Notes: generated by a model from the sequence alone, not told the origin. A stretch of DNA of 41,570 nt from an uncultured Methanomicrobia archaeon (GCA_964355295.1 CAYHCZ010000005.1:1-41570), one strand, 5' to 3'. Shown: positions 7,874 to 35,331, counted from the first letter of the stretch. Program-made: numbers and translations.

Positions 7874-8658
7874 TCGAATTGGTGCGAGTCGAGAGTACTT
7901 TTTGAACGTTATTCCCGTCAGTCTCTTATCTAAAACTTCAGTCAATATCTTTTTGCCGGGAACGCCAGATGAATCCCCTGTGTTCTGCTGGCGGTGCTCC
8001 GAGCGCTTGAGAAGGCATACGTATCCACCGCATTAATCTTTTTTCTTGTCACCGTCTCATTATGCACTGCTTCCCCGCTGATTCTCCCTCTTTGCGGATG
8101 TCCGTGCCGTCCCTCAGGTAGTAGTAGATGCAAACAGATTCTGGCGCGACGAAGCAGGCCCTTTAAACTCTCGTTGGAGACGCTCACGGTGCCGATCACA
8201 GAGCTGATCGCAGGCATAACAGGTTCGCGCAGAAAGGCTTCGAGATATTCGAGTCGGTGAGCCAACGCTCGACAACCACTACCTTCCCGAGCATAAACTC
8301 TCCCGCGCGTCCCGCGGACGCGGTCGTCGTACCTGCCGCAGGCGCTGACGGTCGGAATAGGGGTCGATCGGCAAGGTGCTCGACGTGAGCACGCGTTCAA
8401 GCGCATCGCAATCGAAGGTGATAGGACCGTGCCGAAAATCGGAGAAAAGGTCGCCGTGTCTGTCCGCATTAATGATGTCCTAAAGGAATGCATCAAAAAC
8501 GCTTGAGCAACATCGTAGCACCGTTGTACGTTCACTTAAAGGTGAAGAAGAGTACGGTTGATGTTTCGCCTCGCGCCGCTTCAGTAAAGCCGCTGCCACT
8601 GTAGAAAAAGAGAAAGGAAATAAGGGGAGGGAGCACGGGCCCTACCCCACCATCACCG

Positions 8659-9948
8659 TTATTTAGTCTCCGTGACGATCACCGTGATCGTATCACTCAC
8701 GCTCTCCCCATATATACTCGTCCCGGCAAAGTGTGCCCGTATGGAGTAATACGGATTTTCTGCTGTATTTGCTACGGTAATGTACCCTCTGAAGCTGTAC
8801 TGCCCCTGCGGGCCGGTGACCTTGTCCAGGCTGATGCGGTACCAGTCACCGTTATACAATGCCTCGAGGTAGACGGGCTGCCCGGCGAGGGGCCCCGTAT
8901 CCGTGCTGTGTGTGCCGGAGATGGTGAACTTGCCGTTCTTCGTTTCGGTTGTTTGGTGATTGCCGTTTACAATAGCGGTGAGGGTTGTCGGTCCCTTTGC
9001 GGTGACCGTGACGGTATCAGGCGTACTTGATGCTCCATAATGGTCGGTCACGATCTGGGTAAAGACGTAGTAGCCTGCCTTGTCCGGCGTGAAAGTGGGA
9101 TACTGTGCCGTCGTGTCGATGATGATGGCGCTTCCGGCCGGTTTCTTATCTACGGTCCACGCGAAGCTGAGCGGGTAGTGGTCGCCGGGGTCATACACGC
9201 CGCCGCCTAACGTTACGAGCGTGTTGACGGTGACTGTCTGATCTTGTAACGCGTTTGGGACGGGTGGCGCGTTCGTTGCCGTTATCGTGACGCTGTCTGG
9301 CGTGCTCGAAAGGCCGAGGTTGTCCGTCACGGTGAGGGTAAAGACGTAGTCGCCCACTTTGTCCGGCGTAAATGAGGGGCGCGAGTCAGTCGGGTTAGCG
9401 AGCGTGATGGAGCTTCCGGCCGGTTTCTTATCTACGGTCCACAAGTAGGTGATCGGAAGGTGGTTGTCAGTTTCATGGCTCAAGTCTCCGACTAACGTCT
9501 TGCTGTGGTAGATCTCCAGCGATGAATCGGGTCCAGCCTCTGCGACGGGCGGTATGTTCGTTGCCGTTATCGTGACGCTGTCTGTGTCACTTAACCCGCC
9601 AGTATCGGTCACGATCTGGGTAAAGACGTAGTTGCCCACCTTGTCCGGCGTGAAAGTGGGATATTGTGCCGTAAAGCTCGAGAGGGTAATGGTGCTTCCG
9701 GCCGGTACGTTATCTATGGTCCACATGATGGAGAGCTGCCAGGGCCAATCTTCGATGTCCGAGATCCCCCCGCCTAACGTCACGGGGGTGTTGACGACGG
9801 TGACTTCCCGACTATCTCCCGCTTCTGCGTGGGGTGACTCGTTCGCCGCTGCAGTTATCGTAGATCCCACAAAGATCGAGAGCATCATCATCACTACAAC
9901 TGCCGCGCCCAGTGCTCTCGTCAACCTTTTTTTGCGCGTTTTATTCAT
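8659..9948 (-). CDS. Secreted PKD/Ig-like repeat surface protein
   Basis: Signal peptide; three PKD-like repeats (W...PAGS...TFTPDKxGxYVFT...D.VT.TA); C-terminal Big-like domain; pyrimidine-rich terminator-like tract at ~8604-8627. Confidence 0.85.
   Translation of the reverse strand: MNKTRKKRLTRALGAAVVVMMMLSIFVGSTITAAANESPHAEAGDSREVTVVNTPVTLGGGISDIEDWPWQLSIMWTIDNVPAGSTITLSSFTAQYPTFTPDKVGNYVFTQIVTDTGGLSDTDSVTITATNIPPVAEAGPDSSLEIYHSKTLVGDLSHETDNHLPITYLWTVDKKPAGSSITLANPTDSRPSFTPDKVGDYVFTLTVTDNLGLSSTPDSVTITATNAPPVPNALQDQTVTVNTLVTLGGGVYDPGDHYPLSFAWTVDKKPAGSAIIIDTTAQYPTFTPDKAGYYVFTQIVTDHYGASSTPDTVTVTAKGPTTLTAIVNGNHQTTETKNGKFTISGTHSTDTGPLAGQPVYLEALYNGDWYRISLDKVTGPQGQYSFRGYITVANTAENPYYSIRAHFAGTSIYGESVSDTITVIVTETK
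8678..8968. repeat. Domain-encoding repeat, copy 1 (copy 2 at 11615..11890)
   Basis: High nucleotide identity by eye; copy 1 carries 15 extra nt. Confidence 0.85.
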
Positions 9949-10985: not shown

Positions 10986-12012
10986 TCAGGGGGGGATAGG
11001 AGCGGTTATATCGCTCTCTGAAGCCGCATAGGTCGAATCTCCTGCAAATCTCGCTTGATAGAAGTTGCCGGCCGGTACCATTTCAACGAAATTCGACAAT
11101 GTACTATCAGTGGTGGTTACGTCAACCTTTGAATTGAGTGTCGTTGGGGTCGGCCCATAGTATATACTTACTGTTAGACCAGCGAGAGGATTACCGCCCA
11201 GGTCCCTTAGATACCCCTCGAACCAATAGGGTACATCTGGTGAGGCCGAGGCCCAAACGGCAAAATCTCCGATCTGCGTCAAGGTCTTGTAAGTATGGTC
11301 GTACGGTGCAATGAGCGTTTGCGTCTCTACACTCAGTTGATTGCCTAAAGCGTCAAAGGTCTTGAGCGTCACCACCACTGGTACGCTCGCGCTTACGTCG
11401 GGGTATCCATATGTGTCTACAAAGGGTTGTGGTGATGTGACAGAATAGCTCCACCCCCGCCCCGCATACGAGCCGCTGGAACTTATTTCATACAATGCAA
11501 TGTTGCTTGGGGGGGTATTCACCTGCTATGATCATCCAGTTCGCATGCCACATAGAGTAGTAAGAATCGTACGTCCAGCCCTGAAAAGTCGCGGTCATCA
11601 GTGAAGTTTTGACTATCACCGTGATCGTATCACTCACGCTCGCCCCATACGCGCTCGTCCCGGCAAAGTGCGCCCGTATGGAGTACGTTCCTACTACGGT
11701 AATGTACCCTTTGAAGCTGTACTGCCCCTGATTACCGGTGACCTTGTCCAAGCTGATACGCTGCCAACTCCCCTCATACAATGCCTCGAGGTAGACGGGC
11801 TTCCCGGCGAGGGCTCCGGTATCCGTGCTGAGTGTGCCGGTGATGGTGAACTTCCCGTTCTTTGTTACGTCTATGTTGTGGTTGCCGTTTGTGGTCGCGG
11901 TGAGCGTTGTTGGTGCTGCACCGTTCGCGCTAGTTTTTACAGCAGCTGTTGCGACAAACAAAGATAACAACATCAGAGCCACTAAAGATAACGATAACAC
12001 TTTTTTCATCAT
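10986..12012 (-). pseudogene. Secreted Ig-like surface protein split by a 1-nt frameshift (ORFs 11488..12012 and 10986..11522)
   Basis: Signal peptide plus Big-like domains; removing one G from the G7 run at 11509-11515 joins IIAGEYPP to SNIALYE. Confidence 0.7.
11615..11890. repeat. Domain-encoding repeat, copy 2
   Basis: Matches 8678..8968. Confidence 0.85.
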
Positions 12013-12788: not shown

Positions 12789-14660
12789 TTACTGTCTTGG
12801 GTTGCTTCGCGCAACTCCTTGTACCTGACACAGCTCGTTAAAACGTCCGTTTTCCTTTCTGGAAAGCGTCGCCCAGTCTCCAGATTCAATGATTCGGCCG
12901 TCTTCGAGCACATAGATGATATCCGCGTTTCGTATTGTCGAGAGACGATGCGTTATGATGACAATGGTCATGTCGCCGTGCAGGGCGTCGATCGCGTCCT
13001 GGATCCGCCGCTCGTTTTCCGAGTCCAGGCTGCTCGTTGCTTCGTCGAGCAGCAACACGGCCGGCTGACGTAACAACGCGCGTGCTAAGGCCAACCGTTG
13101 GCGCTCACCTCCCGATAACCGTACGCCGCGGTCACCGAGCACCGTCTCTATACCACTGGGAAGCTGCGACACAAAGTCCTCTGCAGCTGCCGTGCGTAGA
13201 GCGGCAGTAATCTCCGCGTCGCTCGCCGTGGGATACGCCCATAAGAGGTTCGCGCGCACGGTATCGTTAAAGAGGAAGGTGTCCTGTGCGACGTAACCGA
13301 TGTGACGGCGCCACGCGTAAAGACGTTCGGCATTCAGCGGCACGTCGTCGATGAGAACTTGCCCTTCACGCGGCAGGATAAGCCCCATGATGAGGTCGGC
13401 AAGTGTGCTCTTTCCCGCACCAGAACTGCCGACGATTGCGGTCGTTTCCGCTGCGTTGACGACGAAGTTGATGTTGTTGACAGCCGCCTGCCCATCATCA
13501 GTATATGCGAAGGAAACGTCTCGGAACTCGATACATTGTTGCAGATTTACCTCTTGCGGGTCGTCGATCTCACGTTCAGCCGCTGCTTCGCATCGCGTCT
13601 GGATCGCCATGATGTTGGCAAACGAGGGCAGCATGTTGATGAAGTACTGGTAGGTCTGCTGAATCGACGAAAATTTAGGGATAATGCGGTAGAATAGAAA
13701 CAGCAGGAGCAGCGCAACGGCCCCCGGAATGTGCAAAATCTCGATTAAAACAACAAGAGACGCGCCGAGGATAAGCACCGATCCGATGTCAAACAAGCTA
13801 CGCGTACCGCTCCAATTCCGAATGTAACCGACGTTTGCACCCTTAATCTGCTCATTGAACTTTGAAAAGAGCGCAGCGTTCTGTTCCTGAGCACCGTAAC
13901 TCTTGATGGCCTTCATCCCATTGAGGTGCTCGGTTATGGCGCCAAAAAGCTCCCGCGTATCTGCGGATAAAGCCGTGCCCTTTGCCCGCGCAAGGGAAAC
14001 CTTGCGCCTGAGAGTAAGAAGGAGGATTATCCCGCACACGACGACAGCGCCTGTCACTACCGCCGAGAGTTGCCACGCAATAAATAGATAGACCAACACA
14101 ACCATTACGCTCACCGCCAGTTGCAGCACCTGTTGCGTGCCAGCGCCGACGCGTTCGATCTCTGCGGTTAACGCATGTATAAACGTCGAGGCCCGCTGGC
14201 GTGAAAAGAAGAGCCAAGTGGTGTTGATGATCGCGTTGTACAGTCGTTGCCTGAGAAGCGATTCGAGCTCGTAGGTGATCGTAAAGCTCGTGTTGTTTTG
14301 CCAGCGGTTCAAGAGCGCGTAGAGGCTCATAATCACGACGTAGACGGCGAGCACCGAAACAAGGGTTATCGGGAATCCGACAAGCGTGAAAAACGACGCG
14401 ACATAGTAGGTGATACTTCCCGTTGTGCCCTGCCCCGTGTTGAAACCTACGAGCTGTAACAGCGGTAGCAAGAGCAGAAGTCCCACCCCTTCGGTTAGAG
14501 CGAGCGCTACCGTGAGCGTTACGGCAAGCGCCACCTGACCGGGCATGGTGCCCCACAGGAGAGAAGCGTATTGCCCCGCTTTGCTGTGTTGTACCCAAGA
14601 GGACGCAGACGCGCGCAGTCTTCTGCTTATAGACGGTGCCTCGTGTGCTTCGGTGGCCAA
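12789..14660 (-). CDS. ABC transporter, fused permease/ATPase (lasso exporter D)
   Basis: N-terminal TM domain; GSSGAGKST, LSGGERQR, LLLDEATSSLD, H-loop. Confidence 0.92.
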   Translation of the reverse strand: MATEAHEAPSISRRLRASASSWVQHSKAGQYASLLWGTMPGQVALAVTLTVALALTEGVGLLLLLPLLQLVGFNTGQGTTGSITYYVASFFTLVGFPITLVSVLAVYVVIMSLYALLNRWQNNTSFTITYELESLLRQRLYNAIINTTWLFFSRQRASTFIHALTAEIERVGAGTQQVLQLAVSVMVVLVYLFIAWQLSAVVTGAVVVCGIILLLTLRRKVSLARAKGTALSADTRELFGAITEHLNGMKAIKSYGAQEQNAALFSKFNEQIKGANVGYIRNWSGTRSLFDIGSVLILGASLVVLIEILHIPGAVALLLLFLFYRIIPKFSSIQQTYQYFINMLPSFANIMAIQTRCEAAAEREIDDPQEVNLQQCIEFRDVSFAYTDDGQAAVNNINFVVNAAETTAIVGSSGAGKSTLADLIMGLILPREGQVLIDDVPLNAERLYAWRRHIGYVAQDTFLFNDTVRANLLWAYPTASDAEITAALRTAAAEDFVSQLPSGIETVLGDRGVRLSGGERQRLALARALLRQPAVLLLDEATSSLDSENERRIQDAIDALHGDMTIVIITHRLSTIRNADIIYVLEDGRIIESGDWATLSRKENGRFNELCQVQGVARSNPRQ

Positions 14661-17446: not shown

Positions 17447-18424
17447 TTACCACCTGATCTTGACTGCATCTTCTATCAGATGTACGAGCGCCGGAAGCGA
17501 CTCGAGAGAGCGACACGTTCTGGCACGAAGGGTTGTTGTCGACGCAGCGACGCGTGCGCAGCGCGATAGGTGCGTGACGATCTCCTCTTCAGCTAGCAGC
17601 CTAAAGCAATAGGAGTTATCGAGAAGCGCGGCGAGGCTTTCTCGGCGCGAAAGTCTTTTCAGAGCACTTTCAGCAGCTGGATCGAGAACGCATAAGTACT
17701 TAAGGGGAACATCGGCGTCGGGAAATTGCTGTCGCACTGGAAAAGCGCGCTTCACCGAGTAGGGGGTGCACGTGCTCAACGTCGCTGGGTCGTGCGAGAG
17801 TGCCGCCAATGTATCGGGCCAGAGGTTTATTTCGGGATACGCAGGCGGAACGACTGGCGATGGCCCGTCGAGCTTGACGGCGACAACGTCGTCGGCCACT
17901 AGCTGGTGTCCGCGGGCGTGGAGCGCGAGGGCGAGGGTCGATTTTCCTCGTCCTGATTTCCCAAGAAAAATAACTGCTTCACCATCGATCGCAGCGGCGC
18001 TTGCGTGAAGAGTAAGGAAACCCCGCTGGTGGAGGAGCGCTGCAAATACGTCTGTAAGAATCATCTTGCGAAGTACTCTCTCATCTGCGCCGGGCGACGG
18101 ATTGACGGTGATCTCTCGTCCGTTTTGCACCAAAAACGTCCCAATGCCTTCCCAGAACAGGAGTATACCTCGCGAAGCAACGCGATAGTTCGCGCCAGCT
18201 GCAGTGATTTCGTCTGACGCCGGTAATGAGCTTACACGGCCGTAGCGGACTACAACGTCGACTTTTGTTGGGGCGCTCACGGGAGCGCTGAAAAAAGGGA
18301 TGACAGAAGCAACGCTTAGTCCGTATAACGTACAAAAGTACGATCCATTTGTCACTGGCGCTTGCTTCAAAACATCTGTTGTCACTAACGCGTGGTCTTT
18401 TTTAATGCAATCTGCAGAAACCAC
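17447..18424 (-). CDS. HPr-kinase-like lasso peptide kinase K2
   Basis: LHQRGFLTLHAS, GKSGRGKST, VADD; start uncertain. Confidence 0.88.
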   Translation of the reverse strand: MVSADCIKKDHALVTTDVLKQAPVTNGSYFCTLYGLSVASVIPFFSAPVSAPTKVDVVVRYGRVSSLPASDEITAAGANYRVASRGILLFWEGIGTFLVQNGREITVNPSPGADERVLRKMILTDVFAALLHQRGFLTLHASAAAIDGEAVIFLGKSGRGKSTLALALHARGHQLVADDVVAVKLDGPSPVVPPAYPEINLWPDTLAALSHDPATLSTCTPYSVKRAFPVRQQFPDADVPLKYLCVLDPAAESALKRLSRRESLAALLDNSYCFRLLAEEEIVTHLSRCARVAASTTTLRARTCRSLESLPALVHLIEDAVKIRW

Positions 18425-18471: not shown

Positions 18472-18536
18472 AGGATCTCGCTCGGGATCCGCCCCGAGAT
18501 CCTACGGTTTTGGCGAAACCTGACTTTCGTCAGGTT
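18472..18536 (-). terminator. Two stem-loops at the 3' end of precursor A2
   Basis: AACCTGAC-GAAA-GTCAGGTT (18517-18536, perfect 8-bp stem over the stop codon) and AGGATCTCG...CGAGATCCT (18472-18503). Confidence 0.55.
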
Positions 18537-18670
18537 CCTTGAGTTTTCGCTCGGGGGGCTGGAGAGCCGTCGCCTGAGCCCGTCCCTCGCAGCGTATATT
18601 CCCTCAAGGATCCGATACAAGTCAACTTTGGCTGTGAGTAATTCCTTTTTGTGCGGTCTTCTATGTTCAT
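18530..18670 (-). CDS. Lasso peptide precursor A2: MNIEDRTKRNYSQPKLTCIGSLREYTL|RGTGSGDGSPAPRAKTQGT
   Basis: Hand-translated 46-aa ORF; YSQPKL...IG...T(-2) aligns without gaps to the A1 leader; core has Asp7; lies between C3 and K2. Confidence 0.9.
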   Translation of the reverse strand: MNIEDRTKRNYSQPKLTCIGSLREYTLRGTGSGDGSPAPRAKTQGT

Positions 18671-18713
18671 TTTGATACCCTACACTTAACAAATGTGATA
18701 GATTATCGTTTGC

Positions 18714-18720
18714 TTATATA
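18714..18720 (-). promoter_or_regulatory. Putative TATA box for precursor A2
   Basis: Minus strand AAG-TATATAA-GC about 45 nt upstream of the ATG. Confidence 0.5.
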
Positions 18721-18833
18721 CTTAACATCCCACGAGGACTTAATTGTTCCTATTTGTCGCGCTCGCACAAACGCGTGCTAGAGCTACACCGCGAAAGCGG
18801 TGTAAGAGCCTTGAGGTCACCGATCCTCATAAT

Positions 18834-20747
18834 TCACTCGACAAAGCTAGCGTTGCGTTCTTTCTCCTTTTGTAGCCAAAGTTCTAGAACAACAACTTGC
18901 CACACTGCGTACCCTCCCCGAGTATCCCCTTTGGTCACCAAGTCAAACGCTTTGCGGGCTTGAGAGATCTCAACGTAATTATCGACCAGGCGATGCTCCT
19001 TTGACAAGACTTCCTGCACAAGCGCCTTGTCAAACGTACGTAAACCACGATAGAAGACTGCCGCATTGCTCGATTTGTCAACTCGACATCGTATTGCGCG
19101 CGGAAGACAATTAACCAATGCACGCCGCGCCACTACCCTGTTAAACCCTGCGCTTAGCTTTTGCTCTGCTGGGAGGGCTAAGCAGAACTCGACCAACCGC
19201 CGGTCGTAAAACGGATGTCGGCCCTCCATTGAAAAATCTGCAAAAATCTGATCCATCACTTCTAGGTCAAATTGCACTTTCGGCGCCGTAAGGTCTTTGT
19301 AGTGCCTCTCGCGCGCCGTCCGGGTCGTCGATCGAGCACGGTCGACGATGTCCACTTGCGGCTCGAGCTTAATGCGCTCAGCAAAGTCTCGTTTAATCAA
19401 CAGTTCTGGGGCTGCTGGCTGCACTACCTGTGGCACTGCCCTACGCAACGTTCTACGAACGATGTTAGGCGCTGATGCGACCAACATAGGTAACAAAATG
19501 TCACGTCGTGATCTATGAGTACGCTTAGAGAGCGCGTTGATCTCCCGTAGCAGGGTGCGCAGTTTCAGGTTGCGCGCCAGTTCAAAGAAACGGCCGTCGC
19601 CATGCGATACGACACTATCACCGTCCTCGCCGTCTAAGATCACACGAATCCGAGCATTTCGGGCGGCTGCCAGCAATGCCAGCCCAATTTGATCGCCGGC
19701 CGAGTGATAAAGCTGATCGAGTTGCCGCACAATCTCCTGAACGTCATCAAAAGGGTCTCGCTCATCAGCCGGCACTAAATGGGACTCAAGATCGCCTTGG
19801 GCAACGATCGCGTTGATGAAGTAACGCTCGTCACTCTCCGGCACATTGTCGTAGAAAGCGGAGAACGTTTGGAGCCGCTGTGATGGTAAACGCCCGTTTA
19901 GATCTTGCTTCCTCAGCAGCTCACGCGCTACGCACACGACCGAAGATGAGTCAAGTCCGCCGCTAAGCAGTGACCCGACAGGATAAGCGCTGCGGAGGCG
20001 ACAACGAACGGCTTGTGTGAAGAGGTCACGATAAGCACGCGCATACTCCTCATCTGAAGCAAGGTGGATTTCACGCGTAGGATCAAGGAACCAATACCGA
20101 CGGAGTTCGACACGTCGATCGCTGATAAGCAACGTATGAGCGGCAGGCAACCGCACGATGTCGGCGTAGAAAGTGATTTCCCGGTCCTCAAAGTTGCTTT
20201 TCAAATAATGCATTATTTGCACCTCGTTGACCTTCCGGGGAACGTCCGGGACAGTGAAGAGGGCTTTGATTTCGGAAGCGAAGGCAAAAAGGTGATTTTG
20301 AGCGTGATAGTAATAGAATGGCTTGACCCCCATGTGGTCTCGGGCACAGAAGAGCTGCTGCTGAGAGCCGTCCCATATAGCAAACGCGAAGTCGCCGAGG
20401 AGGTGTTCGGGACAGTGCCGGCCCCAGCGGTCGTATGCACGAACGATGAGCTCGCTGTCGGCGATCTCGTCAGGTGATGCAGTTAAGCCAAAAACTGAGA
20501 TGAGCTCATCACGATTATCGATACGAGCATCACTCGTCACGGTGAGTGGGGCAAGGGTGAACGGCAATCGTTCGTAAAGGGATTCCGGAGTCGTCCAGAG
20601 CATTCGGTGGCCGAGCCCGACGGAGCTTTCTTGCCACGTGCCCGCAGCGTCGGGACCGCGTCGCGCGAGGCTATCGGTCATGTGCTCAAGTAGGCTAGGG
20701 TCAAGACTCTTGTCATCAAGGCGATAAATTCCGAGAATGCCGCTCAT
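18834..20747 (-). CDS. Lasso peptide cyclase C3
   Basis: MSGILGIY, RRGPD, DARIDNR, SGGLDSSS, RHPFYDRR. Confidence 0.92.
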   Translation of the reverse strand: MSGILGIYRLDDKSLDPSLLEHMTDSLARRGPDAAGTWQESSVGLGHRMLWTTPESLYERLPFTLAPLTVTSDARIDNRDELISVFGLTASPDEIADSELIVRAYDRWGRHCPEHLLGDFAFAIWDGSQQQLFCARDHMGVKPFYYYHAQNHLFAFASEIKALFTVPDVPRKVNEVQIMHYLKSNFEDREITFYADIVRLPAAHTLLISDRRVELRRYWFLDPTREIHLASDEEYARAYRDLFTQAVRCRLRSAYPVGSLLSGGLDSSSVVCVARELLRKQDLNGRLPSQRLQTFSAFYDNVPESDERYFINAIVAQGDLESHLVPADERDPFDDVQEIVRQLDQLYHSAGDQIGLALLAAARNARIRVILDGEDGDSVVSHGDGRFFELARNLKLRTLLREINALSKRTHRSRRDILLPMLVASAPNIVRRTLRRAVPQVVQPAAPELLIKRDFAERIKLEPQVDIVDRARSTTRTARERHYKDLTAPKVQFDLEVMDQIFADFSMEGRHPFYDRRLVEFCLALPAEQKLSAGFNRVVARRALVNCLPRAIRCRVDKSSNAAVFYRGLRTFDKALVQEVLSKEHRLVDNYVEISQARKAFDLVTKGDTRGGYAVWQVVVLELWLQKEKERNASFVE

Positions 20748-20798
20748 TGGGGGGTTCCATCAACTGCGCTGGTGTCTTCGCGCCATCCGTTGTTTAGG

Positions 20799-21812
20799 TT
20801 AGGTGCTCGAAGTTGATATACGCTTAAAGCGTTCCCGTGCCGCCCCCAGGGTGTACAGAATGTCAACTGCGATCGTGGCCCCTGCGAGTGCGGTGATTTG
20901 ACCTGGGTTATCGTACGGCGGCGAGAGCTCCACAACATCTCCACCCACGATGTTCAATCCTTCAACGCTCCATAGAATTGCGCGGGATTTAAACGTGTCC
21001 GGCCCGCCAATCACGGGGGTGCCGGTTCCGGGCGCAAAAGCAGGGTCAATGAAATCGATGTCAAATGTCAGATAGACGGGGCTTTCACCGACGATCTTTC
21101 TGACTTCATTACCGATCTGCGCTGCCGTGTGCTCATTCACGAAGAGCCCATCAAGAACGCTAAAGCCTTTACCCGTCGATCGATCGTATGGCGAGCGGAC
21201 GCCGATGTGCACAGAGCGCCGCGGATCGACCAGACCTTCCTGAACGGCACGATAGAACTGGGCACCGTGATTGTACTCTTCTGAGTCGAGGTCATCGGTG
21301 TGGGCATCAAAGTGAACGAGTGACAGAGGACCATAACGTTTGGCATAAGCGCGAAGAATAGGGTACGTAGCGAAATGGTCGCCTCCGAGCATTAAGATTG
21401 ACGCACCAACGCTTAGAATGAGCCCGGCCATTAACTCTGTGTTCTTGATCATCTTCTCAGGATGGCCTGGCGGACACCGCACGTCGCCGAAGTCTCGGGT
21501 CTTATACCTCTCTTTGACATCATAGTCTCTCGGCCACGCACGTCCACGTCCGTGCAGGCCGGTATACTGCGAGAGATCACGAAGGGCGCGAGGTCCAAAG
21601 CGTGCCCCTGGCCGGTAAGAAGTGCCGAGATCGAACGGGATTCCGAGAATGGCTAGCTCGGTGTCAGCTTGGTCAGTAGGAAACGGCGCATTCATAAAAG
21701 AGGTATCAAGGCCGACTAGAGCTTGGTGCCCCTCTCTGTTAATGAGGTCTTCTAACTTTCCATCCGCGTCAGGATTCTTTCGCACAGTCGCTCCCAATTT
21801 TGCTATATCCAT
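20799..21812 (-). CDS. speB: Agmatinase/arginase-family (ureohydrolase) protein
   Basis: GIPFDLGTSYRPGARFGP, GGDH, DAHTD, DIDFIDPAFAPGTGTP; Mn ligands intact; substrate not established. Confidence 0.88.
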   Translation of the reverse strand: MDIAKLGATVRKNPDADGKLEDLINREGHQALVGLDTSFMNAPFPTDQADTELAILGIPFDLGTSYRPGARFGPRALRDLSQYTGLHGRGRAWPRDYDVKERYKTRDFGDVRCPPGHPEKMIKNTELMAGLILSVGASILMLGGDHFATYPILRAYAKRYGPLSLVHFDAHTDDLDSEEYNHGAQFYRAVQEGLVDPRRSVHIGVRSPYDRSTGKGFSVLDGLFVNEHTAAQIGNEVRKIVGESPVYLTFDIDFIDPAFAPGTGTPVIGGPDTFKSRAILWSVEGLNIVGGDVVELSPPYDNPGQITALAGATIAVDILYTLGAARERFKRISTSST

Positions 21813-22009
21813 TTTCTAATCGAACACATATAAACTCTCACCGTTCTGCGACTTTTTGTGTCAGCGGTTCTCTTTCTTTATTGGGATTATCGAATTAAGT
21901 AATCAATAGTCTATAATCCGAATATTAGGGGGCGCTGCTGTGGAAAACTTTAAGAGACCTTTCGAATTGGCGCGCTCGAGAGGAAAGGTTAACTAAGGAT
22001 CGGTCAATA

Positions 22010-22435
22010 TCGCCACGTCCTCAACCTGCTTGTTGATGCGCTTAATGAGAACAAAAGAGCACTAAACGACTCAAAAATTGCCGTTCTTGGAATTGCTTAC
22101 AAGGAAAACTTGGGAGATTATCGCGAGAGCCCGACGGAACGGTTGATCGAAGGACTCAAAAAGGGGAGAGCAAGGATCCATCTTGTTGATCTACACGTGG
22201 ACCAGGACATCTTGCGTACATTTGCAACACCTGAGGCGACCGTTTACGACACTCTAAATTCTGCGGATGCTCTCGTCCTCATGACTGCACATAGCGATTT
22301 TGCGGACTTGACCTATCAAAAATAAAGGATATAATGCGCACTCCAATAATCGTAGATGGACGAAGGATGTTCGACCCTGGAGCAACTGCTGAAATTGGAT
22401 TCACCTATAAAGGTGTAGGAGCTGTAAACAAATGA
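22010..22435 (+). pseudogene. C-terminal remnant of a UDP-sugar dehydrogenase (WecC/WbpA-like)
   Basis: KIAVLGIAYKENLGDYRESP...ADALVLMTAHSDF, frameshift near 22320, then IMRTPIIVDGRRMFD...YKGVG; N-terminal domains absent. Confidence 0.8.
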
Positions 22436-22788: not shown

Positions 22789-23958
22789 CTAGAGTCGGGG
22801 TTGCAACAGTGAAACGACAAATTCCACCGTCACGCGAAGAGGGTGGTAAAAGTAGTAAAAAGGCGTCAATGACGCCGGCAAGGACATAAGGCGAAAATCG
22901 TTTGCTGTAGGTACGAAAACATAAAAAAAGAGGATATGCACACGGTCTCTCAAGCTCTCTTTGGTCGCCAGCCGGTCAAAAACACTATCAAACTTTGAGC
23001 GGCGCTTAGGTTCTTTAAAAAGCGCATCTCTTGCATGCTCAGCAAGCTTTCGCGCTCCAGCATCGCGCTTAGCAGCAGCCAAAACCTCTTCAGGCACTGG
23101 TATATTGAAGAGATCGCACACCAAGAGGAGGCTTACAAAAAGCGCTCGTTGACCCTTCGTCTTTTGCACCTGCTCCCAAAGAAGGTCCCAATTGAGGCGA
23201 GGATACCGGTAGATGATCTCCGCCACGTCACTTATTACATCAAGAGAGAGCCAAAGATGACTCGCCGCGTGAATGCATGAAACGAACAGCAGATCCTCTG
23301 CGGATAGGATGCACACATTTTCGCCGAGCAAGCATATATCGGACGAGTTATTCACGAGATCCGGCACGATTGACACACGTAGATATGCAGCAGACATGAT
23401 ATCCCAATGCAGGTCGACCTCGGCCTCACCGAAAGCCGCGCTCTCAAACTGACGCTCAAAGCCACACTTGAGAAGAAGGCGCTCTTGGACGCTGTTGCAG
23501 CGAATCCGAGGTTCATACTCGGCTGAACGAAGTAGTACCTGCACGCGTGCAAAATCTTCTTTGAGTATCAAGATGTCAAGATCCTCACTACGCCGAATGC
23601 CAACATCCTGGTATATTAGTTGTGAGAAAACGGGCCCTCGTAAGGGAATCAAAAGGATGCCGTTATCTTTAAACAAACGAATGAGGCGACGGAGCTCTCC
23701 AATCAAGCCTAGGTTCCTTAGCACGTTCTTCTCAAAATTACAACGCAGGTCATCCATTACTATTAACGGCACGCGATCAAACGCCAAGTCGTTAAGATGC
23801 TTGTAAAGGCGGGCCACTACCAAGTGCCGCTCCGCGAGCGCAACAAGGCGGTTCCAGTCAACGTCCTCCTCCAGCAACGCGTGAGCGCGCTCCGCGGCAG
23901 GGCCGTCGAGGTGTGCCCGCGCACATAACAACAATAACTCTTCTTCGGGCGTGCTCAT
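22789..23958 (-). CDS. Nucleotidyltransferase family protein (NTP_transf_5, lasso-associated type)
   Basis: DWNRLVALAERHLV, PLRGP (usually LKG), RRSEDLDILI, VDLHW, CIHAASH. Confidence 0.85.
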   Translation of the reverse strand: MSTPEEELLLLCARAHLDGPAAERAHALLEEDVDWNRLVALAERHLVVARLYKHLNDLAFDRVPLIVMDDLRCNFEKNVLRNLGLIGELRRLIRLFKDNGILLIPLRGPVFSQLIYQDVGIRRSEDLDILILKEDFARVQVLLRSAEYEPRIRCNSVQERLLLKCGFERQFESAAFGEAEVDLHWDIMSAAYLRVSIVPDLVNNSSDICLLGENVCILSAEDLLFVSCIHAASHLWLSLDVISDVAEIIYRYPRLNWDLLWEQVQKTKGQRALFVSLLLVCDLFNIPVPEEVLAAAKRDAGARKLAEHARDALFKEPKRRSKFDSVFDRLATKESLRDRVHILFFYVFVPTANDFRLMSLPASLTPFYYFYHPLRVTVEFVVSLLQPRL

Positions 23959-24811: not shown

Positions 24812-26146
24812 CTAACATAAATCCTGTCCCACACCAACTGCGAGAAACGTGAGGCGAGTCCCAAACTCGTGTGGATCAAAGATGCGCCGAGCGTCTATTA
24901 CCACTGGTTTCACCATGGGATAAATGAAATCATCCGGCGTCAGCTTCTTGAACTCCTCCCACTCCGTCAAAACTATACAACAGTGAGCGCCTGCAAGGCA
25001 TTCTGAAATTGAGGGCGGAAAATCAAGCCCTTCAAAGCCAGGCTGATTTACTCGCTTAACCACGGGGTCGAACGCGCTGACGTGCGCGCCCGCCTTTAGG
25101 AGTTCGCGGGCAACTTTAAGGGATGGCGCCTCGCGCAAGTCATCGGTATCGGGCTTGAAAGAGAGGCCGAGGAGGGCCACTTTTTTGTTCCGTGGTTCCC
25201 CGAGCGTTGAGAGAGCGAGCTGAGCGACATGGGAGGCTTGCGTTTGATTTACCGCTAGCGTGGCCCTCAGCAAAGGCGCTGGATACCCATTTGCCTCAGC
25301 GAACTTACATAACGCTTTTGTATCCTTGGGTAGGCATGAGCCCCCAAAACCCGCGCCGGCATTGAGGAATCTGGGGTTAATCCTCTCGTCCAGTCCCACA
25401 CCTGCCATCACCTTAGACACATCGACGCCTGGAACCCGTTCACAAATACGCGCCATTTCGTTCGCATAGGAGATCTTCATCGCAAGAAAGGTGTTGCTCG
25501 CGTATTTGACCATCTCTGCTGATTCGAGACTCATCCTGAGTAAGGGAGTTTCCGGCCCATAAAAATCCTCAAGCAGATCTGCAAGCAGTTGGCCCGACCG
25601 CTTGTCATATTCTCCAATTACCACACGATCGGGGCTCAACGTATCCCGAATTGCCGATCCTTGCCGGAGGAATTCTGGATTCATGCACAGGCCAAAATCA
25701 CGCCCTGCAACGAGTCCCGATGCTTCTTCGAGAGCGGCCTTGACAGGGCCCCGCACCGTCCCAGGCGTTACGGTGCTTTTGACCACAACGAGGTGGTAGG
25801 CCTTCTTCTGTTGTAGTGCACGCCCGATGTCCTCGCTCGCACTGATGACATAACGCAGGTCGATCGTCCCGTCAGCTTTTTCCGGCGTGCCTACGGTGAG
25901 AAATGTGACCTCAGTTTGACGCACGGCTTCCGAACGGTCAATCTCGGCGCGTAAGTGTCCCGACTCAATGCCTGTTCGCACCGCTTCATCCAGTCCTGGT
26001 TCATGAAAGGGGGCCCGCTTGGCATTGATGATGCGCACCTTATCTTGGTTGCGCGTGGAGGCGATTACATCGTAGCCCCTCGACGCAAAGCATGCGGCGG
26101 TGCTTAAGCCAACGTACCCGGTTCCGACGATTGATATGCGCTGCAC
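24812..26146 (-). CDS. ugd: UDP-glucose/GDP-mannose 6-dehydrogenase
   Basis: GTGYVG, KSTVTPG, NPEFLRQG, GFGGSCLPKD, FKPDTDDLREAP. Confidence 0.92.
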   Translation of the reverse strand: MQRISIVGTGYVGLSTAACFASRGYDVIASTRNQDKVRIINAKRAPFHEPGLDEAVRTGIESGHLRAEIDRSEAVRQTEVTFLTVGTPEKADGTIDLRYVISASEDIGRALQQKKAYHLVVVKSTVTPGTVRGPVKAALEEASGLVAGRDFGLCMNPEFLRQGSAIRDTLSPDRVVIGEYDKRSGQLLADLLEDFYGPETPLLRMSLESAEMVKYASNTFLAMKISYANEMARICERVPGVDVSKVMAGVGLDERINPRFLNAGAGFGGSCLPKDTKALCKFAEANGYPAPLLRATLAVNQTQASHVAQLALSTLGEPRNKKVALLGLSFKPDTDDLREAPSLKVARELLKAGAHVSAFDPVVKRVNQPGFEGLDFPPSISECLAGAHCCIVLTEWEEFKKLTPDDFIYPMVKPVVIDARRIFDPHEFGTRLTFLAVGVGQDLC

Positions 26147-29387: not shown

Positions 29388-30141
29388 CCGGTATGCACAG
29401 TACTACGACCTTTTTTACCGCCAAAAGAATTATGCAGGAGAGGTCGATTATGTGGATACCCTGATCAAGAAATACGCTCTGGGCGAGACAAAGACGATCC
29501 TTGATCTGGGATGTGGAACCGGTGGACACGCCGTTTTGCTCGCACAAAAGGGGTACCACGTCACTGGGGTAGATCGTTCAAACACGATGCTCGCCATCGC
29601 TGAAGAAAAAATGAGACGTAAGGCGGTCTTAGTGAAATTGCAGAAGGGCGATATCTGCACTATTGACCTCCGCAAGCGCTTTGACGTCGCTATCGCCATG
29701 TTCGCCGTGGTGGGCTACCAGACAACAAATGAGGCCCTCGAGAGCGCGTTGCTTAATGCTGCGAAACATCTTAACCCAGACGGGCTCCTCATTTTTGACG
29801 CGTGGTTTGGACCCACCGTGATCGCTCTCAAGCCGCAAGACAAGATACTCGTGACTGACCTCAGAGGGGGGAAAGTTCTGCGTTTCACTCGGCGCGCTCT
29901 CGACATACTGACGCACACCATCAAGGACACTCACGATGTGCTGCATATCGAGAATGCTGCGCTTCTTGATCACTTTCAGGAGACGCACGAAGTGCGCTTC
30001 TTTTTCACTCAGGAACTGAAGTTTATGCTCGCAAAAACTGGATATCAGGCTGTCGGAATGCACCCATTTATGGAACTTGAGAGAGCGCTAACTGAAAACG
30101 ACTGGAACATGGCAGTCATAGCGAGGAAAGCCCCTGTTTAA
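29374..30141 (+). CDS. Class I SAM-dependent methyltransferase
   Basis: YAQYYDLFY, ILDLGCGTG; overlaps the aminotransferase. Confidence 0.9.
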   Translation: MGVFDRYAQYYDLFYRQKNYAGEVDYVDTLIKKYALGETKTILDLGCGTGGHAVLLAQKGYHVTGVDRSNTMLAIAEEKMRRKAVLVKLQKGDICTIDLRKRFDVAIAMFAVVGYQTTNEALESALLNAAKHLNPDGLLIFDAWFGPTVIALKPQDKILVTDLRGGKVLRFTRRALDILTHTIKDTHDVLHIENAALLDHFQETHEVRFFFTQELKFMLAKTGYQAVGMHPFMELERALTENDWNMAVIARKAPV

Positions 30142-30149
30142 CAATGCTT

Positions 30150-30440
30150 TACCGTACGTACTCGTTATGACCGCGTAGCGTTTTTGGTTTTACATCAAGT
30201 AGAGCGGTTGCTGGAGGGCCCCTAGCGTTATCGGAATCGACTGCATTACAGACTATTATCGCTAAAGCGCGCCAATATTGCGTGTGCCGTAGCTCAGTAT
30301 CGCAGATAAGAACGCTGAAGTGAGTCATGTCGTGAAACAGAAAGGAGACGTGATGAGCATAGGTAAATATAAGCACGGATAGGAGCTATGTAGGCTAGAA
30401 CTCGCTGGGACGTTGAGACAAGACTGGAAGTATGTGCGCC
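30150..30440 (+). pseudogene. Heavily decayed NAD-dependent epimerase remnant (tentative)
   Basis: Broken fragments resembling ERLLEG-SVIGIDCITDYY and KQKGDV match epimerase N- and C-terminal motifs. Confidence 0.35.
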
Positions 30441-30696
30441 GGCCGCCTGAGTGAGCACTTGTGGTGAGTGCTAGGTGGAGCTATAAGGACGGACGAAACT
30501 AGCGACGTTCAAGCTCCCCCTATTATCGTCACGAAACAATGTGTGCCTAACTAAAGTGCGCGATGTCAAACTACAGGTGGGAAACTCAGATTGGCTTAAA
30601 CAGCCGCTATGCTGGAGATAGCTACGCGAGACCACCCGTACGAAAGAAAACGGCAAATTTGGTGAAGAATATAAATGCACAATCTATGGGGCTTCC

Positions 30697-31935
30697 GTGA
30701 CAGAACCTTTGCACCCGAAAATAACTCTTTTTGTTAGCTCTCTTTCTGTTGCTGGAGGGGCTGAGCGATTATTACTTGAGGAGGCCGCGCATTTCAGTCG
30801 AAATTCTGCTTCGGTGAATATACTAACTTTTAAGTTTGCAGTCGAAACCCTTTTTGACGGGGCATATGACGTCAACGTTGAGCAAATAAAGCTAGAAGCA
30901 AGCCCATCGAACACGTTTAAAAAGACAATAGCTCGCATAAAAAGTGCATTTCTCCTGAAAAAAAGAATACGTGAACTAGAGCCAGATATTATTTTGGCCT
31001 CAAGTGCGTGGGATTGCATCCCTCTATATCTTGCCACATTATTCACTCCGTTTATTTATGCCACACATATCCACAGCACGGTGTTTTGGTTTGAGGATAA
31101 TCTCTCAAAGTACTCGTTTATCTATAGAGGTATCTTTAAAGAGATAAGAGAATCTCTTATAGGACACCAGCAATTTATACCAATCGATCCTCCCGGGTCG
31201 AACCTAATGTTTCGGATTCTAATGGAGTTTGTAGCTATAGCAATGTATTTAGGCGTTAGAAAAGCCAAAAAAGTGTTCGTTTTATCAAACCATATGCAAT
31301 GGGAGGTAAACAAGTTATACGGCAAACAAGCTGTTGTAGCAAAAGGAGGCGTATCCAGAGCGATTTTCAGTTATGAACTAAGGACAAATCCTAGAGAGCG
31401 CCTAGGAATAACAGCTGAACAGAAGTTAATATTAAACGTCAATAGGTTAGACCCAAGAAAAAGAATTGACATGTTGCTTCAAGCATTCAAGCTGCTTTGT
31501 AACAAACGTGATGATATATTTTTATGTATTGGGGGGACTGGCCCTGACGAAGATAAGCTGCGGCAACTAACCGAGCGTTTGGGCCTAGGGGACAAAGTTA
31601 AGTTTCTCGGCTATATCAAGGAGGAGGATTTGTGGGATTGGATCATGTCTTGTGACTTGTTTGTTCATCCCAACTGGGCTGATTTTGCCATTGCGGCTTA
31701 TGAGCCATTGGCATTGCAAAAAAAAGTAGTTTGGTCTACTGAGATGGAGATCGATTCCCAGCTCGTTGGAAACAAACACATATTTAGCGCATATCCTACA
31801 GCGGAGAATTTTGCAGCGGTTATGGAGCAAGCGCTCGATACAAAAATAGAAGAAACAAACGACATGTCAATGTTCAGCTGGGATATTTACTGCGACAAGA
31901 TACTAAATGAGTTGAAAGATTATATCAGTCACTGA
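30697..31935 (+). CDS. Glycosyltransferase family 4
   Basis: GGAERL, NVNRLDPRKRID, GGTGPD, FLGYI, DLFVHP. Confidence 0.88.
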   Translation: MTEPLHPKITLFVSSLSVAGGAERLLLEEAAHFSRNSASVNILTFKFAVETLFDGAYDVNVEQIKLEASPSNTFKKTIARIKSAFLLKKRIRELEPDIILASSAWDCIPLYLATLFTPFIYATHIHSTVFWFEDNLSKYSFIYRGIFKEIRESLIGHQQFIPIDPPGSNLMFRILMEFVAIAMYLGVRKAKKVFVLSNHMQWEVNKLYGKQAVVAKGGVSRAIFSYELRTNPRERLGITAEQKLILNVNRLDPRKRIDMLLQAFKLLCNKRDDIFLCIGGTGPDEDKLRQLTERLGLGDKVKFLGYIKEEDLWDWIMSCDLFVHPNWADFAIAAYEPLALQKKVVWSTEMEIDSQLVGNKHIFSAYPTAENFAAVMEQALDTKIEETNDMSMFSWDIYCDKILNELKDYISH

Positions 31936-32322
31936 TAGTAGGCTCTTGCAAAAACTGGACAAAACAGGTCGGTTACGATCCATATTTTCGTCATTAATTT
32001 AGGAACAATGACATCACTCTTAATAACAAGGCAAAAAAACCGCAAAACAAGTTTTAACTTAAATAGTTACTAGTTAATTAAGCTGTCAGAACATCGCTAG
32101 CTTGATCCTTTGAATCGATTCTACCCACCTAAAGTTCAGCATTTCTAAAAAGGTCTTTTTTGTTGAACGAATGTAGAAAATGTGGAAGTACCTTTGATCA
32201 ATAAAGAGGGAAAGTAATTCAACTTACATGTATCGCTGCATTTAGTTTACACGATGGCCGTTAGCACCCAGTCAAACTAAGAAATCGGCATTTTGATTAC
32301 TAATCAAACGACTTGACGAGCA

Positions 32323-33813
32323 ATGGATATAAAGACAAAAGCCGTTAAAGGCGTCGGTTGGATGGCACTTTCGCAAATAACGCAAATGGTGCTGCAATTT
32401 GTCATCATCGCCATTTTAGCTCATCTGCTCACTCCCAGTGATTTTGGACTTATCGCTATGATTGTCGTATTTACGAATTTCGCCTCATTATTCTCAAACC
32501 TAGGATTGACTTACGCAATTATACAAAAAAAAGACGCAAGTGCGTTGCTACTGTCGTCAACTTTTTGGGTCAATTTAGGCGTCGGTCTTCTGTTGACCGT
32601 AGCTTTTGCTGCTTTTTCACCTTTGATTGCAGCTTTTTACGAACAATCGGCACTAATCCCTTTAATCGCTGTGTTGTCCCTTACTTTTTTAATATCCTCG
32701 TTGGGTGGCATCCAAAGCGCATTATTTGCAAAAGAATTGAATTTTCGGATACTTGCGATAATCAACATGTGCTCATTAGCAGCCGGTGGGTTAGCAGCAA
32801 TCATTCTGGCATTCGATGGATTTGGCGTGTGGGCGCTCGTTTGGTTTACTCTTACCATCACCATCATCAAAACTGCTTTGTTGTGCGTTTGTTCAAAATG
32901 GCGGCCCTCACTTACCTTCTCCTGGAGTGAGGAGCGGAAGATTATCAAGTACGGTCTGAACCTCACCGGCTTTAATTTCGTCCACTATTTTGCTCGAAAT
33001 CTCGACAACCTCCTTATCGGTCGTTTTTTAGGATCCGCGCCCTTGGGCTTCTACGATAGGGCGTACCAGTTAATGCTTTTTCCGTTAACCAACATATCCG
33101 CGGTGCTGGGACAAGTCGCATTTCCTTCACTGTCAATCATACAACACGATAAGAAGCGAGTGCGCGAGGCATATATTGAAGCTACGCGCTTAATAGCGGC
33201 TATAACATTTCCTTTAGCGACCGGCTTGTTGGTACTGGCCCGGCCTTTTATCCTAACAGTCTTCGGGCCTCAGTGGACCACGTCGATTCTTCTGGTGCAG
33301 GTGTTATCTGTAGCTTCACTTATTCAGTCGGTAGAAACAACAGTCGGATGGATTTACCTTTCGCAAGCGCGTACGGACGTGATGTTTCGCATAGGAGTTC
33401 TTGGAATGGTAGTGGTGGCCATTTCGTTTTTTGTCGGCCTTAAGCTTGGCGGGTTGCTAGGACTGACGATCTCGTACACTGTCGCCACCTATCTCATAGC
33501 GTATGTCGACCTTTCAATTGCTTTCAGACAGATCAATTTGCGCGTTTCGTATTTTTTTAAAAAACTTCAATTGATAATCATTGCCACTTTTCTTTTTGGA
33601 AGCGCCACGTTCATAATTCGTATTCTATTGGATGAAGTAGCGGGCGCAAACAACTTATTTGTGTTAGCGGTGGCATCGACACTCGGAGTCTTCATCTACT
33701 ATATGCTCTTAAGGGCCTTAGACAAACAGGTGCTCCTTCTATTAACAGAATCGATCCGCACCACTTTGTCAGGCGTTAAGAAACCAACCGGTGAGAACCA
33801 GCTTGATGAATAG
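32323..33813 (+). CDS. wzx: Polysaccharide/oligosaccharide flippase (MOP family)
   Basis: LAHLLTPSDFGL, NLDNLLIGRFLG...LGFYDRA; many TM helices. Confidence 0.9.
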   Translation: MDIKTKAVKGVGWMALSQITQMVLQFVIIAILAHLLTPSDFGLIAMIVVFTNFASLFSNLGLTYAIIQKKDASALLLSSTFWVNLGVGLLLTVAFAAFSPLIAAFYEQSALIPLIAVLSLTFLISSLGGIQSALFAKELNFRILAIINMCSLAAGGLAAIILAFDGFGVWALVWFTLTITIIKTALLCVCSKWRPSLTFSWSEERKIIKYGLNLTGFNFVHYFARNLDNLLIGRFLGSAPLGFYDRAYQLMLFPLTNISAVLGQVAFPSLSIIQHDKKRVREAYIEATRLIAAITFPLATGLLVLARPFILTVFGPQWTTSILLVQVLSVASLIQSVETTVGWIYLSQARTDVMFRIGVLGMVVVAISFFVGLKLGGLLGLTISYTVATYLIAYVDLSIAFRQINLRVSYFFKKLQLIIIATFLFGSATFIIRILLDEVAGANNLFVLAVASTLGVFIYYMLLRALDKQVLLLLTESIRTTLSGVKKPTGENQLDE

Positions 33814-33959
33814 TAAGGGTCTATATCGTTGCGAATCTAACACACTATGAAGGTGAATTGATCATCTAGAGACTGCTACGCATCTTAGCGCGGTCTATGC
33901 GTGACTGTGTTCGTTGACAAACTTGCTACACGAGAACAAATGCAAAGCTGTCTGCGTAT

Positions 33960-34181
33960 GTTGGAGGCAGTTGGCACATACCGGTAGATACTGGCTGAGG
34001 ACTTATAGGCAATGGCCATCCGATTGGGGCAACTGGCTTAGCACAGATTTATGAAGTTGTCCAGCAGATCCGGAGAGAGGCTCACGGTCGGCAGGTCGAC
34101 AATGCTTATGTGGGGATGGTTCATAACGTTGGAGGCGTTGGAGGATCCACCGCAGTCACAATCCTCAGAGGGGTCAAATGA
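33960..34181 (+). pseudogene. Thiolase C-terminal remnant
   Basis: IPVDTG*GLIGNGHPIGATGLAQIYEVVQQIR...HNVGGVGG; internal stop, 5' part missing. Confidence 0.8.
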
Positions 34182-34993: not shown

Positions 34994-35331
34994 CCTCGCA
35001 GTGCCCGGAACGACCATGCTTTTGACCCCACCAGGTGATAAATTATTTTCCTTCTGAGGGTGCGACTGATTCGCGTGCTCGCTTCAACTGCAAAGCGCAA
35101 GTCCATCGACCCATTTTCGTAGAGGTACCAACAGTAAGAAAGATGACATCTGTTTAGATGGCCTCATCACAACTTTCAACGGCGCGCGGCGTTTAAGGAT
35201 TGGTTGGTCGCTGGCGTGGTGGGGGCTAGGTGCCGACGGTGAGTGAAAGGGTGGAGGAGGGGGAGGCGTTGTAGGCGGTGGCGTCGCCGGAGAAGTAGGC
35301 GAAGTTATGGTAGATGCCTAGGGGCTCGGTG
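34993..35331. repeat. ~339-bp direct repeat, copy 1
   Basis: Near-identical to 41231..41569 at a constant 6238-bp offset. Confidence 0.95.

Follow-up and report, generated by a model that had tools for sequence, protein, structure and literature searches.

The stretch of DNA analysed here (the window, 41,570 nucleotides; GCA_964355295.1 CAYHCZ010000005.1:1-41570) forms contig C5 in an uncultured Methanomicrobia archaeon's assembly of 2.08 Mb, which has a completeness rating of 60%. The stretch carries a scattered group of lasso peptide genes, one of which stands directly behind a gene for an arginase-family enzyme. This gene encodes a SpeB-type ureohydrolase of 337 aa (P0002; 20799..21812, minus strand, with its stop codon at 20799-20801), and 51 nt downstream of it on the same strand begins the lasso peptide cyclase gene C3 (18834..20747, start at 20747), whose 637-aa product contains Asn_synthase and GATase domains, scores 744.3 bits against NF033535 (cut-off 525), and has a closest homologue at 51% identity among the matches listed (50% in a second search). 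C3 is followed, also on the minus strand, by a TATATAA element found by motif scan (18714..18720), by the precursor gene A2 about 50 nt further on (18530..18670), and by HprK2, which encodes an HPr-kinase-like protein (17447..18424; Pfam Hpr_kinase_C, E 1.6e-10). The preliminary description of this DNA had proposed that the ureohydrolase converts Arg residues of the A2 peptide to ornithine. Our analysis partly supports that proposal, and we keep such tailoring as our leading reading, a tentative one to which we give somewhat less than an even chance.

The ureohydrolase gene and the lasso genes beside it

The two statements on which the proposal was built hold. Alignment and coordinates confirm an arginase-family gene with intact Mn ligands 51 bp 5' of C3, and a leader-pattern match, with Thr at position -2, confirms that A2 has Arg1 and Arg13 in its core while the core of the second precursor in the window, A1, has no Arg. 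The conserved lasso leader pattern is YxxPxLxxxGxxxxxTx. The A2 precursor has 46 residues, with a leader of 27 aa (MNIEDRTKRNYSQPKLTCIGSLREYTL; 18590-18670) that fits the pattern (YSQPKLTCIGSLREYTL) and a core of 19 residues (RGTGSGDGSPAPRAKTQGT; 18533-18589, followed by the stop at 18530-18532), in which D7 is the predicted ring acceptor between R1 and R13. The A1 precursor (4532-4660, minus strand) likewise fits the pattern (YQTPSLTVIGSTAEITR), and its core (SLGPAGDDVQGGSIYHFS) starts with S1 and has its acceptor at D7/D8. At least one Arg in a core of 19 residues is common by chance, so the Arg content of A2 says little by itself, and a search for A2 homologues gave no candidate with enough shared words, a result that is uninformative for a 46-residue peptide. 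The C-terminal core residue is Thr in A2 and Ser in A1, and an HPr-kinase-like gene lies near each precursor; such kinases reportedly phosphorylate the conserved C-terminal Ser of precursors in paeninodin-type clusters (PMC9266682). The same TATATAA element stands 5' of both precursors, 50 nt before A2 and 81 nt before A1 (~4735-4741, minus strand), which suggests separate strong promoters for the two.

The preliminary description had tied the proposed role to co-transcription of the enzyme gene with C3. The layout is indeed operon-like: the two genes share a strand, and the 51-nt spacer between them (20748..20798, minus strand) contains neither a TATA-like box nor a minus-strand terminator-like site in motif and terminator scans. 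The sigma-70 promoter and terminator scan, which is unsuited to archaea and gave counts near those of shuffled sequence, was used only for the terminator check in this spacer. The shared transcript itself is an inference from this arrangement. A TATA-like element, TTTATAT (21828..21834, minus strand), lies about 22 nt 5' of the ureohydrolase ATG, where it was recognised both by reading the sequence and by motif scan; its presumed function makes it a candidate archaeal promoter for a leaderless or short-leader mRNA. With a weak TATATC in the 3' end of the ureohydrolase gene, about 72 nt ahead of the C3 ATG, an internal promoter is conceivable.

Composition does not separate the hypotheses, since the ureohydrolase gene resembles its neighbours in GC content and in GC content at third codon positions (0.545/0.556, against 0.541/0.569 for C3 and 0.551/0.546 for HprK2). 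A repeat scan around the enzyme gene found only the paralogous 5' ends of C3 and a further cyclase gene, C2, together with short, probably chance repeats, and no mobile-element repeats. Among the sequencing runs listed none was of RNA. In a soil DNA run (X1, matching 9% of the words) there is a relative of about 90% identity, and separate short contigs cover the ureohydrolase, C3, HprK2 and a dehydrogenase remnant described below; no contig there bridges the ureohydrolase and C3, so that run does not show their adjacency, and the parts it leaves uncovered prove nothing either way. Nine of the ten listed differences in the ureohydrolase reading frame are synonymous and the tenth is Ile to Met, which fits purifying selection on the enzyme.

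Upstream of the promoter region of the enzyme gene, directly adjoining it on the opposite strand, lies a remnant of a UDP-sugar dehydrogenase gene (22110..22435, plus strand), frameshifted and reduced to its C-terminal domain, with 22110-22325 matching PF03720, a domain of UDP-glucose/GDP-mannose dehydrogenases (E 2.8e-11), and 22334-22435 matching the C-terminus of an intact paralogue at 24812-26146 (E 1e-5). The remnant lies between the ureohydrolase gene and that of a nucleotidyltransferase, NTP_transf_5 (22789..23958, minus strand; PF14907, E 9e-49), a kind of gene known from kinase-type lasso clusters. This truncation places the ureohydrolase gene at the very edge of a rearranged or inserted block, which begins with it and has taken the place of the remaining dehydrogenase gene.

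An active-site-intact SpeB relative with an altered pocket

The ureohydrolase matches Pfam Arginase PF00491 with 256.4 bits (E 4.5e-76, cut-off 22), and we assign it to the SpeB type of that family and not to the OspR-type peptide arginases. E. coli SpeB has six described Mn ligands besides a catalytic His and Glu (PMC8125230), and all of them are present: in the alignment, H146, D169, H171, D173, D251 and D253 correspond to E. coli H126, D149, H151, D153, D230 and D232, and the catalytic H182 and E295 to H163 and E274. An AlphaFold2 model is confident in the catalytic core (mean predicted local distance difference test score 81, predicted template modelling score 0.85, 168 residues at or above 90), while its confidence is low in the N-terminal 35 residues and lowest at the entrance loops 63-66 and 86-91. 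The model superposes on the SpeB chains 7LBA and 7LOX with target-normalised template modelling scores of 0.85-0.92, and the top Foldseek matches are 7LBA, 7LOX and 4DZ4 (E ~1e-29).

It is very improbable that the gene is an idle remnant whose product has no enzyme function, or has a structural or regulatory role only. Nothing speaks directly for such a remnant, the hints being that the pairing with lasso genes occurs in one genome and that the gene stands beside a pseudogene; against it are the six intact metal ligands and the intact His/Glu pair, a full-length open frame, the predominance of synonymous differences from the related strain, and the confident catalytic core of the model.

The pocket, and with it the loops around the active-site entrance, differs from that of SpeB. 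In E. coli SpeB the amino end of agmatine is held by Tyr155 and by Trp68 of the neighbouring subunit, as derived from docking and dynamics and not from mutants of those residues (PMC8125230). The alignment places Asp174-Leu175 of the ureohydrolase at E. coli Thr154-Tyr155; the Trp68 loop is one residue longer and has become an HGRGR stretch (LHGRGRAW), with His87 or Gly88 at the place of Trp68 depending on the aligner; and Ala-Gln replaces Thr165-Met166 after the catalytic His. To see how usual this is we used the homologues at 160 fetched loci, 80 from metagenomes and 80 from genomes, which are 39-52% identical among the matches listed, taking from each locus one plus-strand open reading frame in which both DxHxD and GG[DE]H occur; the classes sum to 160. 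A Thr-Tyr or Thr-Trp pair is kept in 127 of the 160, and Asp followed by an aliphatic residue occurs in none. The replacements suggest another mode of recognition than in SpeB for the far end of the substrate. A predicted complex of the ureohydrolase with A2 and two Mn scored 0.00 against a mark of 0.32, a run made without controls that speaks neither for nor against binding.

An altered pocket of this kind would also suit an enzyme of the lasso pathway that works on another guanidino substrate, whether by supplying an amine (putrescine) for a phosphorylated C-terminus, by trimming an agmatine-like group from the peptide, or by acting on some other small guanidino compound with a far end unlike that of agmatine. 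The fold and metal site fit small guanidino substrates, and after SpeB the next solved relatives are a Burkholderia agmatinase, guanidinopropionase, guanidinobutyrase and proclavaminate amidinohydrolase. The cluster also has a kinase and a nucleotidyltransferase, the pair that decorates the C-terminal residue of pseudomycoidin (PMC9266682). No amine ligase or transferase was identified beside the ureohydrolase, however, and the proposal is purely inferential; we regard it as unlikely. To our knowledge, no such amine decoration of a lasso peptide has been described. None appears in passages of two reviews either (PMC9266682; PMC13352647).

Origin, distribution and possible roles of the enzyme

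The preliminary description had advised looking for a separate housekeeping speB in the genome, and there is one. On contig C49 an archaeal-type agmatinase of 289 aa, about 30% identical to the copy in the lasso region, lies between the genes for eIF5A and deoxyhypusine synthase. Together with the TATA-like boxes in front of genes of the assembly, this row is what one would expect of an archaeon. Among 60 related genomes (17 of them from its genus and 6 from its family), matches at E <=1e-20 are all at most 33% identical to the lasso-region enzyme, save one of 40% in another family, and at least two of those loci (L005 and L010) group with the genome's own housekeeping copy in our tree; in 400 further genomes of the phylum the best match is 41% and matches are confined to two other families. 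An orthologue of the enzyme was thus found neither in the 60 relatives nor in the 400 genomes. Among 5.8 billion protein clusters, only three others exceed 55% identity to it (P0003 at 70%, P0004 at 72% and the partial P0011 at 77%). A quick maximum-likelihood tree of 44 rows (34 alignment rows and 10 archaeal locus sequences, with P0007-P0010 and many other matches left out) unites these three with the ureohydrolase in a clade whose support is 100 and whose stem measures 0.74 changes per site. The clade is nested in bacterial SpeB-like proteins, far from the archaeal housekeeping group, and adjoins four sister sequences, the named one of which is from an Acidimicrobiales metagenome-assembled genome. 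A housekeeping copy elsewhere, a sparse distribution and a long-stemmed bacterial clade together mark the enzyme as a horizontally acquired, fast-evolved accessory paralogue. Of the phylogenetic comparison with SpeB and OspR that the preliminary description had called for, the divergence from housekeeping SpeB therefore stands, and kinship with OspR-type enzymes does not (no match to PF12640 at E 10).

Separately, a bacterial-type SpeB-like gene, 39-41% identical to the enzyme studied here, occurs in seven of the phylum's 400 other genomes, of which six belong to a single family (G035, G081, G193, G245, G333, G353 and G393; loci L004 and L124-L129). The copy in G035 has an internal TGA, and L124-L129 fall outside the clade of E. 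coli SpeB and its bacterial homologues in the quick tree, in which the G035 copy was not included.

A number of observations weigh against a role in peptide tailoring, and several of them are what a passenger gene would lead one to expect, that is, an additional agmatinase, gained by horizontal transfer and working on free agmatine, whether for polyamine supply or to use external agmatine, which is read together with C3 by virtue of where it landed. We consider this a real possibility and rank it a close second, with roughly a one-in-three standing in our judgement. The enzyme passes two curated NCBIfam agmatinase models, NF002564 with 337.9 bits (cut-off 302) and TIGR01230 with 206.2 (cut-off 174.3), and its best solved relative is E. 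coli SpeB itself, of which it keeps every catalytic residue (E 1.6e-76, 43% identity, collinear, with indels of 1-2 residues). No further Pfam domain was found in it even at E 10, and it has no peptide-binding domain; it also keeps a DxxDxxxPxxxxP stretch that has been tied to SpeB oligomerisation (PMC8125230). The lack of an extra domain and the retention of this stretch make a closed hexamer built for small substrates likely. The Asp-aliphatic pair is shared by the four sister sequences, so the change predates any link to lasso genes that can be documented, and Asp174 could bind the agmatine amine in a different way, standing in for the lost aromatic pair.

The distribution of the pairing points in the same direction. 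The co-occurrence for which the preliminary description had proposed a test was not seen: at all 80 metagenome and all 80 genome loci, genes for a lasso cyclase, an HPr-kinase-like protein, NTP_transf_5 or B2 are absent from the 10 kb examined. In 38 of the 80 genome loci speA adjoins the homologue, which identifies the wider group as classical SpeB. Conversely, none of eight related archaeal lasso loci, in four genomes, has a homologue of the ureohydrolase. None of the best 120 of 5618 C3 homologues lies on a contig of the size of those carrying P0003, P0004 and P0011 (7705, 1548 and 5016), an indirect and weak indication. The pairing of this enzyme with lasso genes is a singleton, seen in one genome, and the bacterial-type SpeB-like genes in seven of the 400 genomes of the phylum are without lasso genes as well. 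The gene stands at the very edge of the cluster beside a pseudogene, where passenger genes are common. The predicted core at locus L117 (GGSGHNPEIQRPPGSRII) has two Arg in a genome without this enzyme, and the first core residues of the relatives' predicted precursors (L024 and L116-L121; G005, G006, G008 and G018), with core starts placed by the Thr(-2) rule, are A, V, G, N (twice), T, D and Q, a spread by which Arg1, going by these predictions, is no special signal in this archaeal lineage. Asn as the first residue of a lasso peptide was confirmed experimentally only in 2025 (PMC12670498). At L116 (12321-12470), the core QKGPAPTTSPEQ... is without Asp or Glu at positions 7-9 unless the cleavage site shifts by two residues.

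Against a passenger agmatinase stand the housekeeping agmatinase already present in the genome, the lack of an arginine decarboxylase gene beside the ureohydrolase in the window, the loss of the Thr-aromatic pair that most homologues keep together with the rebuilt Trp68 loop, the long stem of the clade, the tight same-strand spacing to C3 across a spacer without a TATA-like box, and the conserved coding sequence of the enzyme in the related strain, in which C3 and HprK2 are present too. Read the other way, the same features (a redundant accessory copy, fast divergence, rebuilt entrance loops, a place tight before the cyclase gene and a conserved coding sequence), along with the precedent of KgrD, a PF00491 enzyme of another peptide pathway, argue for a dedicated role.

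Under the tailoring reading, the gene would encode an active binuclear-metal ureohydrolase of the SpeB lineage, acquired from bacteria by this archaeon or a close ancestor and then recruited to the C3/A2 lasso pathway. It would be co-transcribed with C3 from its own TATA-type promoter, and in the A2 peptide Arg1 and/or Arg13 would be hydrolysed by the enzyme at the guanidino group to ornithine, with release of urea and a change of -42.02 Da per site. The peptide substrate, the choice of Arg and the timing of the step before or after cyclisation are the parts of this scheme that we infer. A more specific form of it, which we think rather improbable, is that the loss of the aromatic lid (the equivalents of Tyr155 and Trp68) opens the pocket to the N-terminal Arg of leader-cleaved A2, whose free alpha-amine would mimic the amine of agmatine, so that Orn1 would arise before or during cyclisation. 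If this were so, the product would be the first ornithine-containing lasso peptide and the first with a basic first residue, its ring might be closed via the delta-amine rather than the alpha-amine, and it would represent an origin of RiPP (ribosomally synthesised and post-translationally modified peptide) arginases independent of PF12640. The suggestion in the preliminary description that Orn1 might permit an unusual ring gained no support from the analysis.

Conversion of Arg to ornithine in RiPPs is already known, and ornithine in other RiPPs serves as a handle for further acylation or methylation (PMC12703449). If the enzyme acts on A2, what would be new is that the conversion involves a SpeB-lineage enzyme, a lasso peptide and an archaeon. 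The word "ornithine" is absent from the reviews PMC9266682 (2022) and PMC13352647 (2026), and the full-text literature, leaving aside subscription papers and supplements, yielded no lasso peptide with ornithine and no lasso cluster with a gene of the arginase family or for an agmatinase, ureohydrolase or amidinohydrolase. Should tailoring be the true role, ornithine would join the known lasso modifications, and ordinary agmatinases, beyond PF12640, would prove recruitable for Arg-to-Orn conversion in peptides, a second and easily mined source of enzymes for peptide engineering. It would also establish a tailored lasso pathway in an archaeon. We know of no characterised lasso peptide from archaea. 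Should the enzyme be only an agmatinase, it would be an ordinary second copy and a warning that genes at the edge of a cluster need not be tailoring genes.

The remainder of the lasso region and comparison with known systems

The lasso region as a whole (2857-23958, minus strand) is a patchwork of three cyclases, two HPr-kinase-like proteins, one nucleotidyltransferase, one ABC (ATP-binding cassette) exporter, one B1/B2 pair and two recognisable precursors, and the cyclases C1, C2 and C3 are mutually 47-49% identical. Along the minus strand the order is NTP_transf_5, ureohydrolase, C3, A2, HprK2, C2 and ABC exporter, and then HprK1, C1, A1 and B1/B2, with gaps of 977 nt between NTP_transf_5 and the ureohydrolase and of 740 nt between HprK2 and C2. 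All the following genes are on this strand. Family searches identified the cyclase C2 (14780..16705), next to which no precursor was recognised in the window, and a lasso D-type ABC exporter (12789..14660) with homologues in related clusters. The first lasso unit contains HprK1 (6974-7945) and the cyclase C1 (4727-6700), both from family searches, besides A1. B1, a PqqD/RRE protein (3293-3592; PF05402, E 8.6e-20), is the sole match of its kind in the assembled genome, and the B2 protease (2857-3396; NF033537, E 3.3e-26) is the one B2 of the assembly; this single B1/B2 pair presumably serves both A1 and A2. In four related archaeal genomes the genes have the compact order B1-B2-C-A-kinase-NTP-ABC, with the NTP_transf_5 gene type present in the clusters L116 and L119, and the ureohydrolase occupies the place that B1-B2 hold in these relatives.

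Regions 8659-9948 and 10986-12012 (minus strand), which lie between the lasso units, encode secreted PKD/Ig-domain proteins with a near-identical segment of ~65 residues in common (GNH...KNGKFTI.G...YLEALY...RISLDKVTG.QGQYSF.GYITV); an overlap of the genes at 10986-11522 and 11488-12012 suggests a frameshifted or split gene. Next to B2 are two small open reading frames (1469-2713, plus strand), the one at 2210-2713 with a helix-turn-helix-like N-terminus, which may belong to an integrated element. A polysaccharide locus with glycosyltransferase and flippase genes coincides with a fall in GC content, from ~0.53 to 0.42-0.44, at 30000-38000, which suggests a separately acquired segment.

Compared with E. 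coli SpeB (PDB 7LBA, 7LOL and 7LOX), the ureohydrolase has the same fold, all the Mn ligands, the equivalents of His163 and Glu274 and the oligomerisation stretch. It differs in having Leu175 and the HGRGR loop where SpeB has Tyr155 and Trp68, in the replacement of Thr154 by Asp and of Thr165-Met166 by Ala-Gln, and in ~20 extra N-terminal residues. The gene context differs as well: the polyamine setting of SpeB-type agmatinases (speA, or eIF5A and deoxyhypusine synthase) is absent from the window and present around the copy on C49, whereas the gene studied here stands in front of a lasso cyclase gene, and its archaeal host possesses an archaeal agmatinase besides.

The cluster around the enzyme resembles those of the paeninodin and pseudomycoidin type, all of whose components (cyclase, B1, B2, ABC exporter, HPr-kinase-like protein, NTP_transf_5 and leader pattern) are also present here. 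It differs from them in being scattered and multiplied, in that A2 ends in Thr and not in the conserved Ser, and in the predicted first residue, Arg. The citrulassins offer a parallel as lasso peptides with a tailored Arg side chain: PAD deiminates Arg to citrulline in them, although both the enzyme family and the product differ from those considered here. This conversion changes the mass by +0.98 Da, and in the producing organisms PAD is encoded outside the citrulassin cluster.

For the reaction itself, Arg to ornithine plus urea, the known enzymes are the OspR-type peptide arginases (OspR, PDB 8BRP; FlmR, OhkR and PbsE), which belong to the same superfamily, share its binuclear Mn chemistry, and are encoded in RiPP clusters with an Arg-containing core, as the ureohydrolase is here (C3, and R1 and R13 of A2). 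These enzymes constitute PF12640, with motifs of their own (PMC12703449), and OspR is a homodimer with an inserted dimerisation domain, Ser170-Ser234 (PMC10028609). Membership of the ureohydrolase in this family was rejected: besides the lack of a PF12640 match, the sequence lacks that family's motifs and has DAHTD alone, at residue 169, and the collinear alignment with the 306-aa E. coli SpeB leaves no inserted dimerisation domain. 8BRP is not among the best 60 of 65 sequence matches or among the fold matches listed to rank 48. PF12640 had no match in the 60%-complete genome, and the control genomes gave none either.

The chemistry that we envisage would be like that of KgrD and unlike that of an OspR-type enzyme. 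KgrD is a PF00491 arginase that converts peptide-bound Arg to ornithine in enteropeptin, a sactipeptide (PMC12703449). As another PF00491 enzyme encoded in a RiPP cluster, it is the closest precedent for the proposed mechanism, the likeness noted here being one of Pfam family and context. KgrD acts on a thiomorpholine-modified Arg in a Firmicute sactipeptide pathway, whereas here the putative substrate is a lasso peptide and the host an archaeon.

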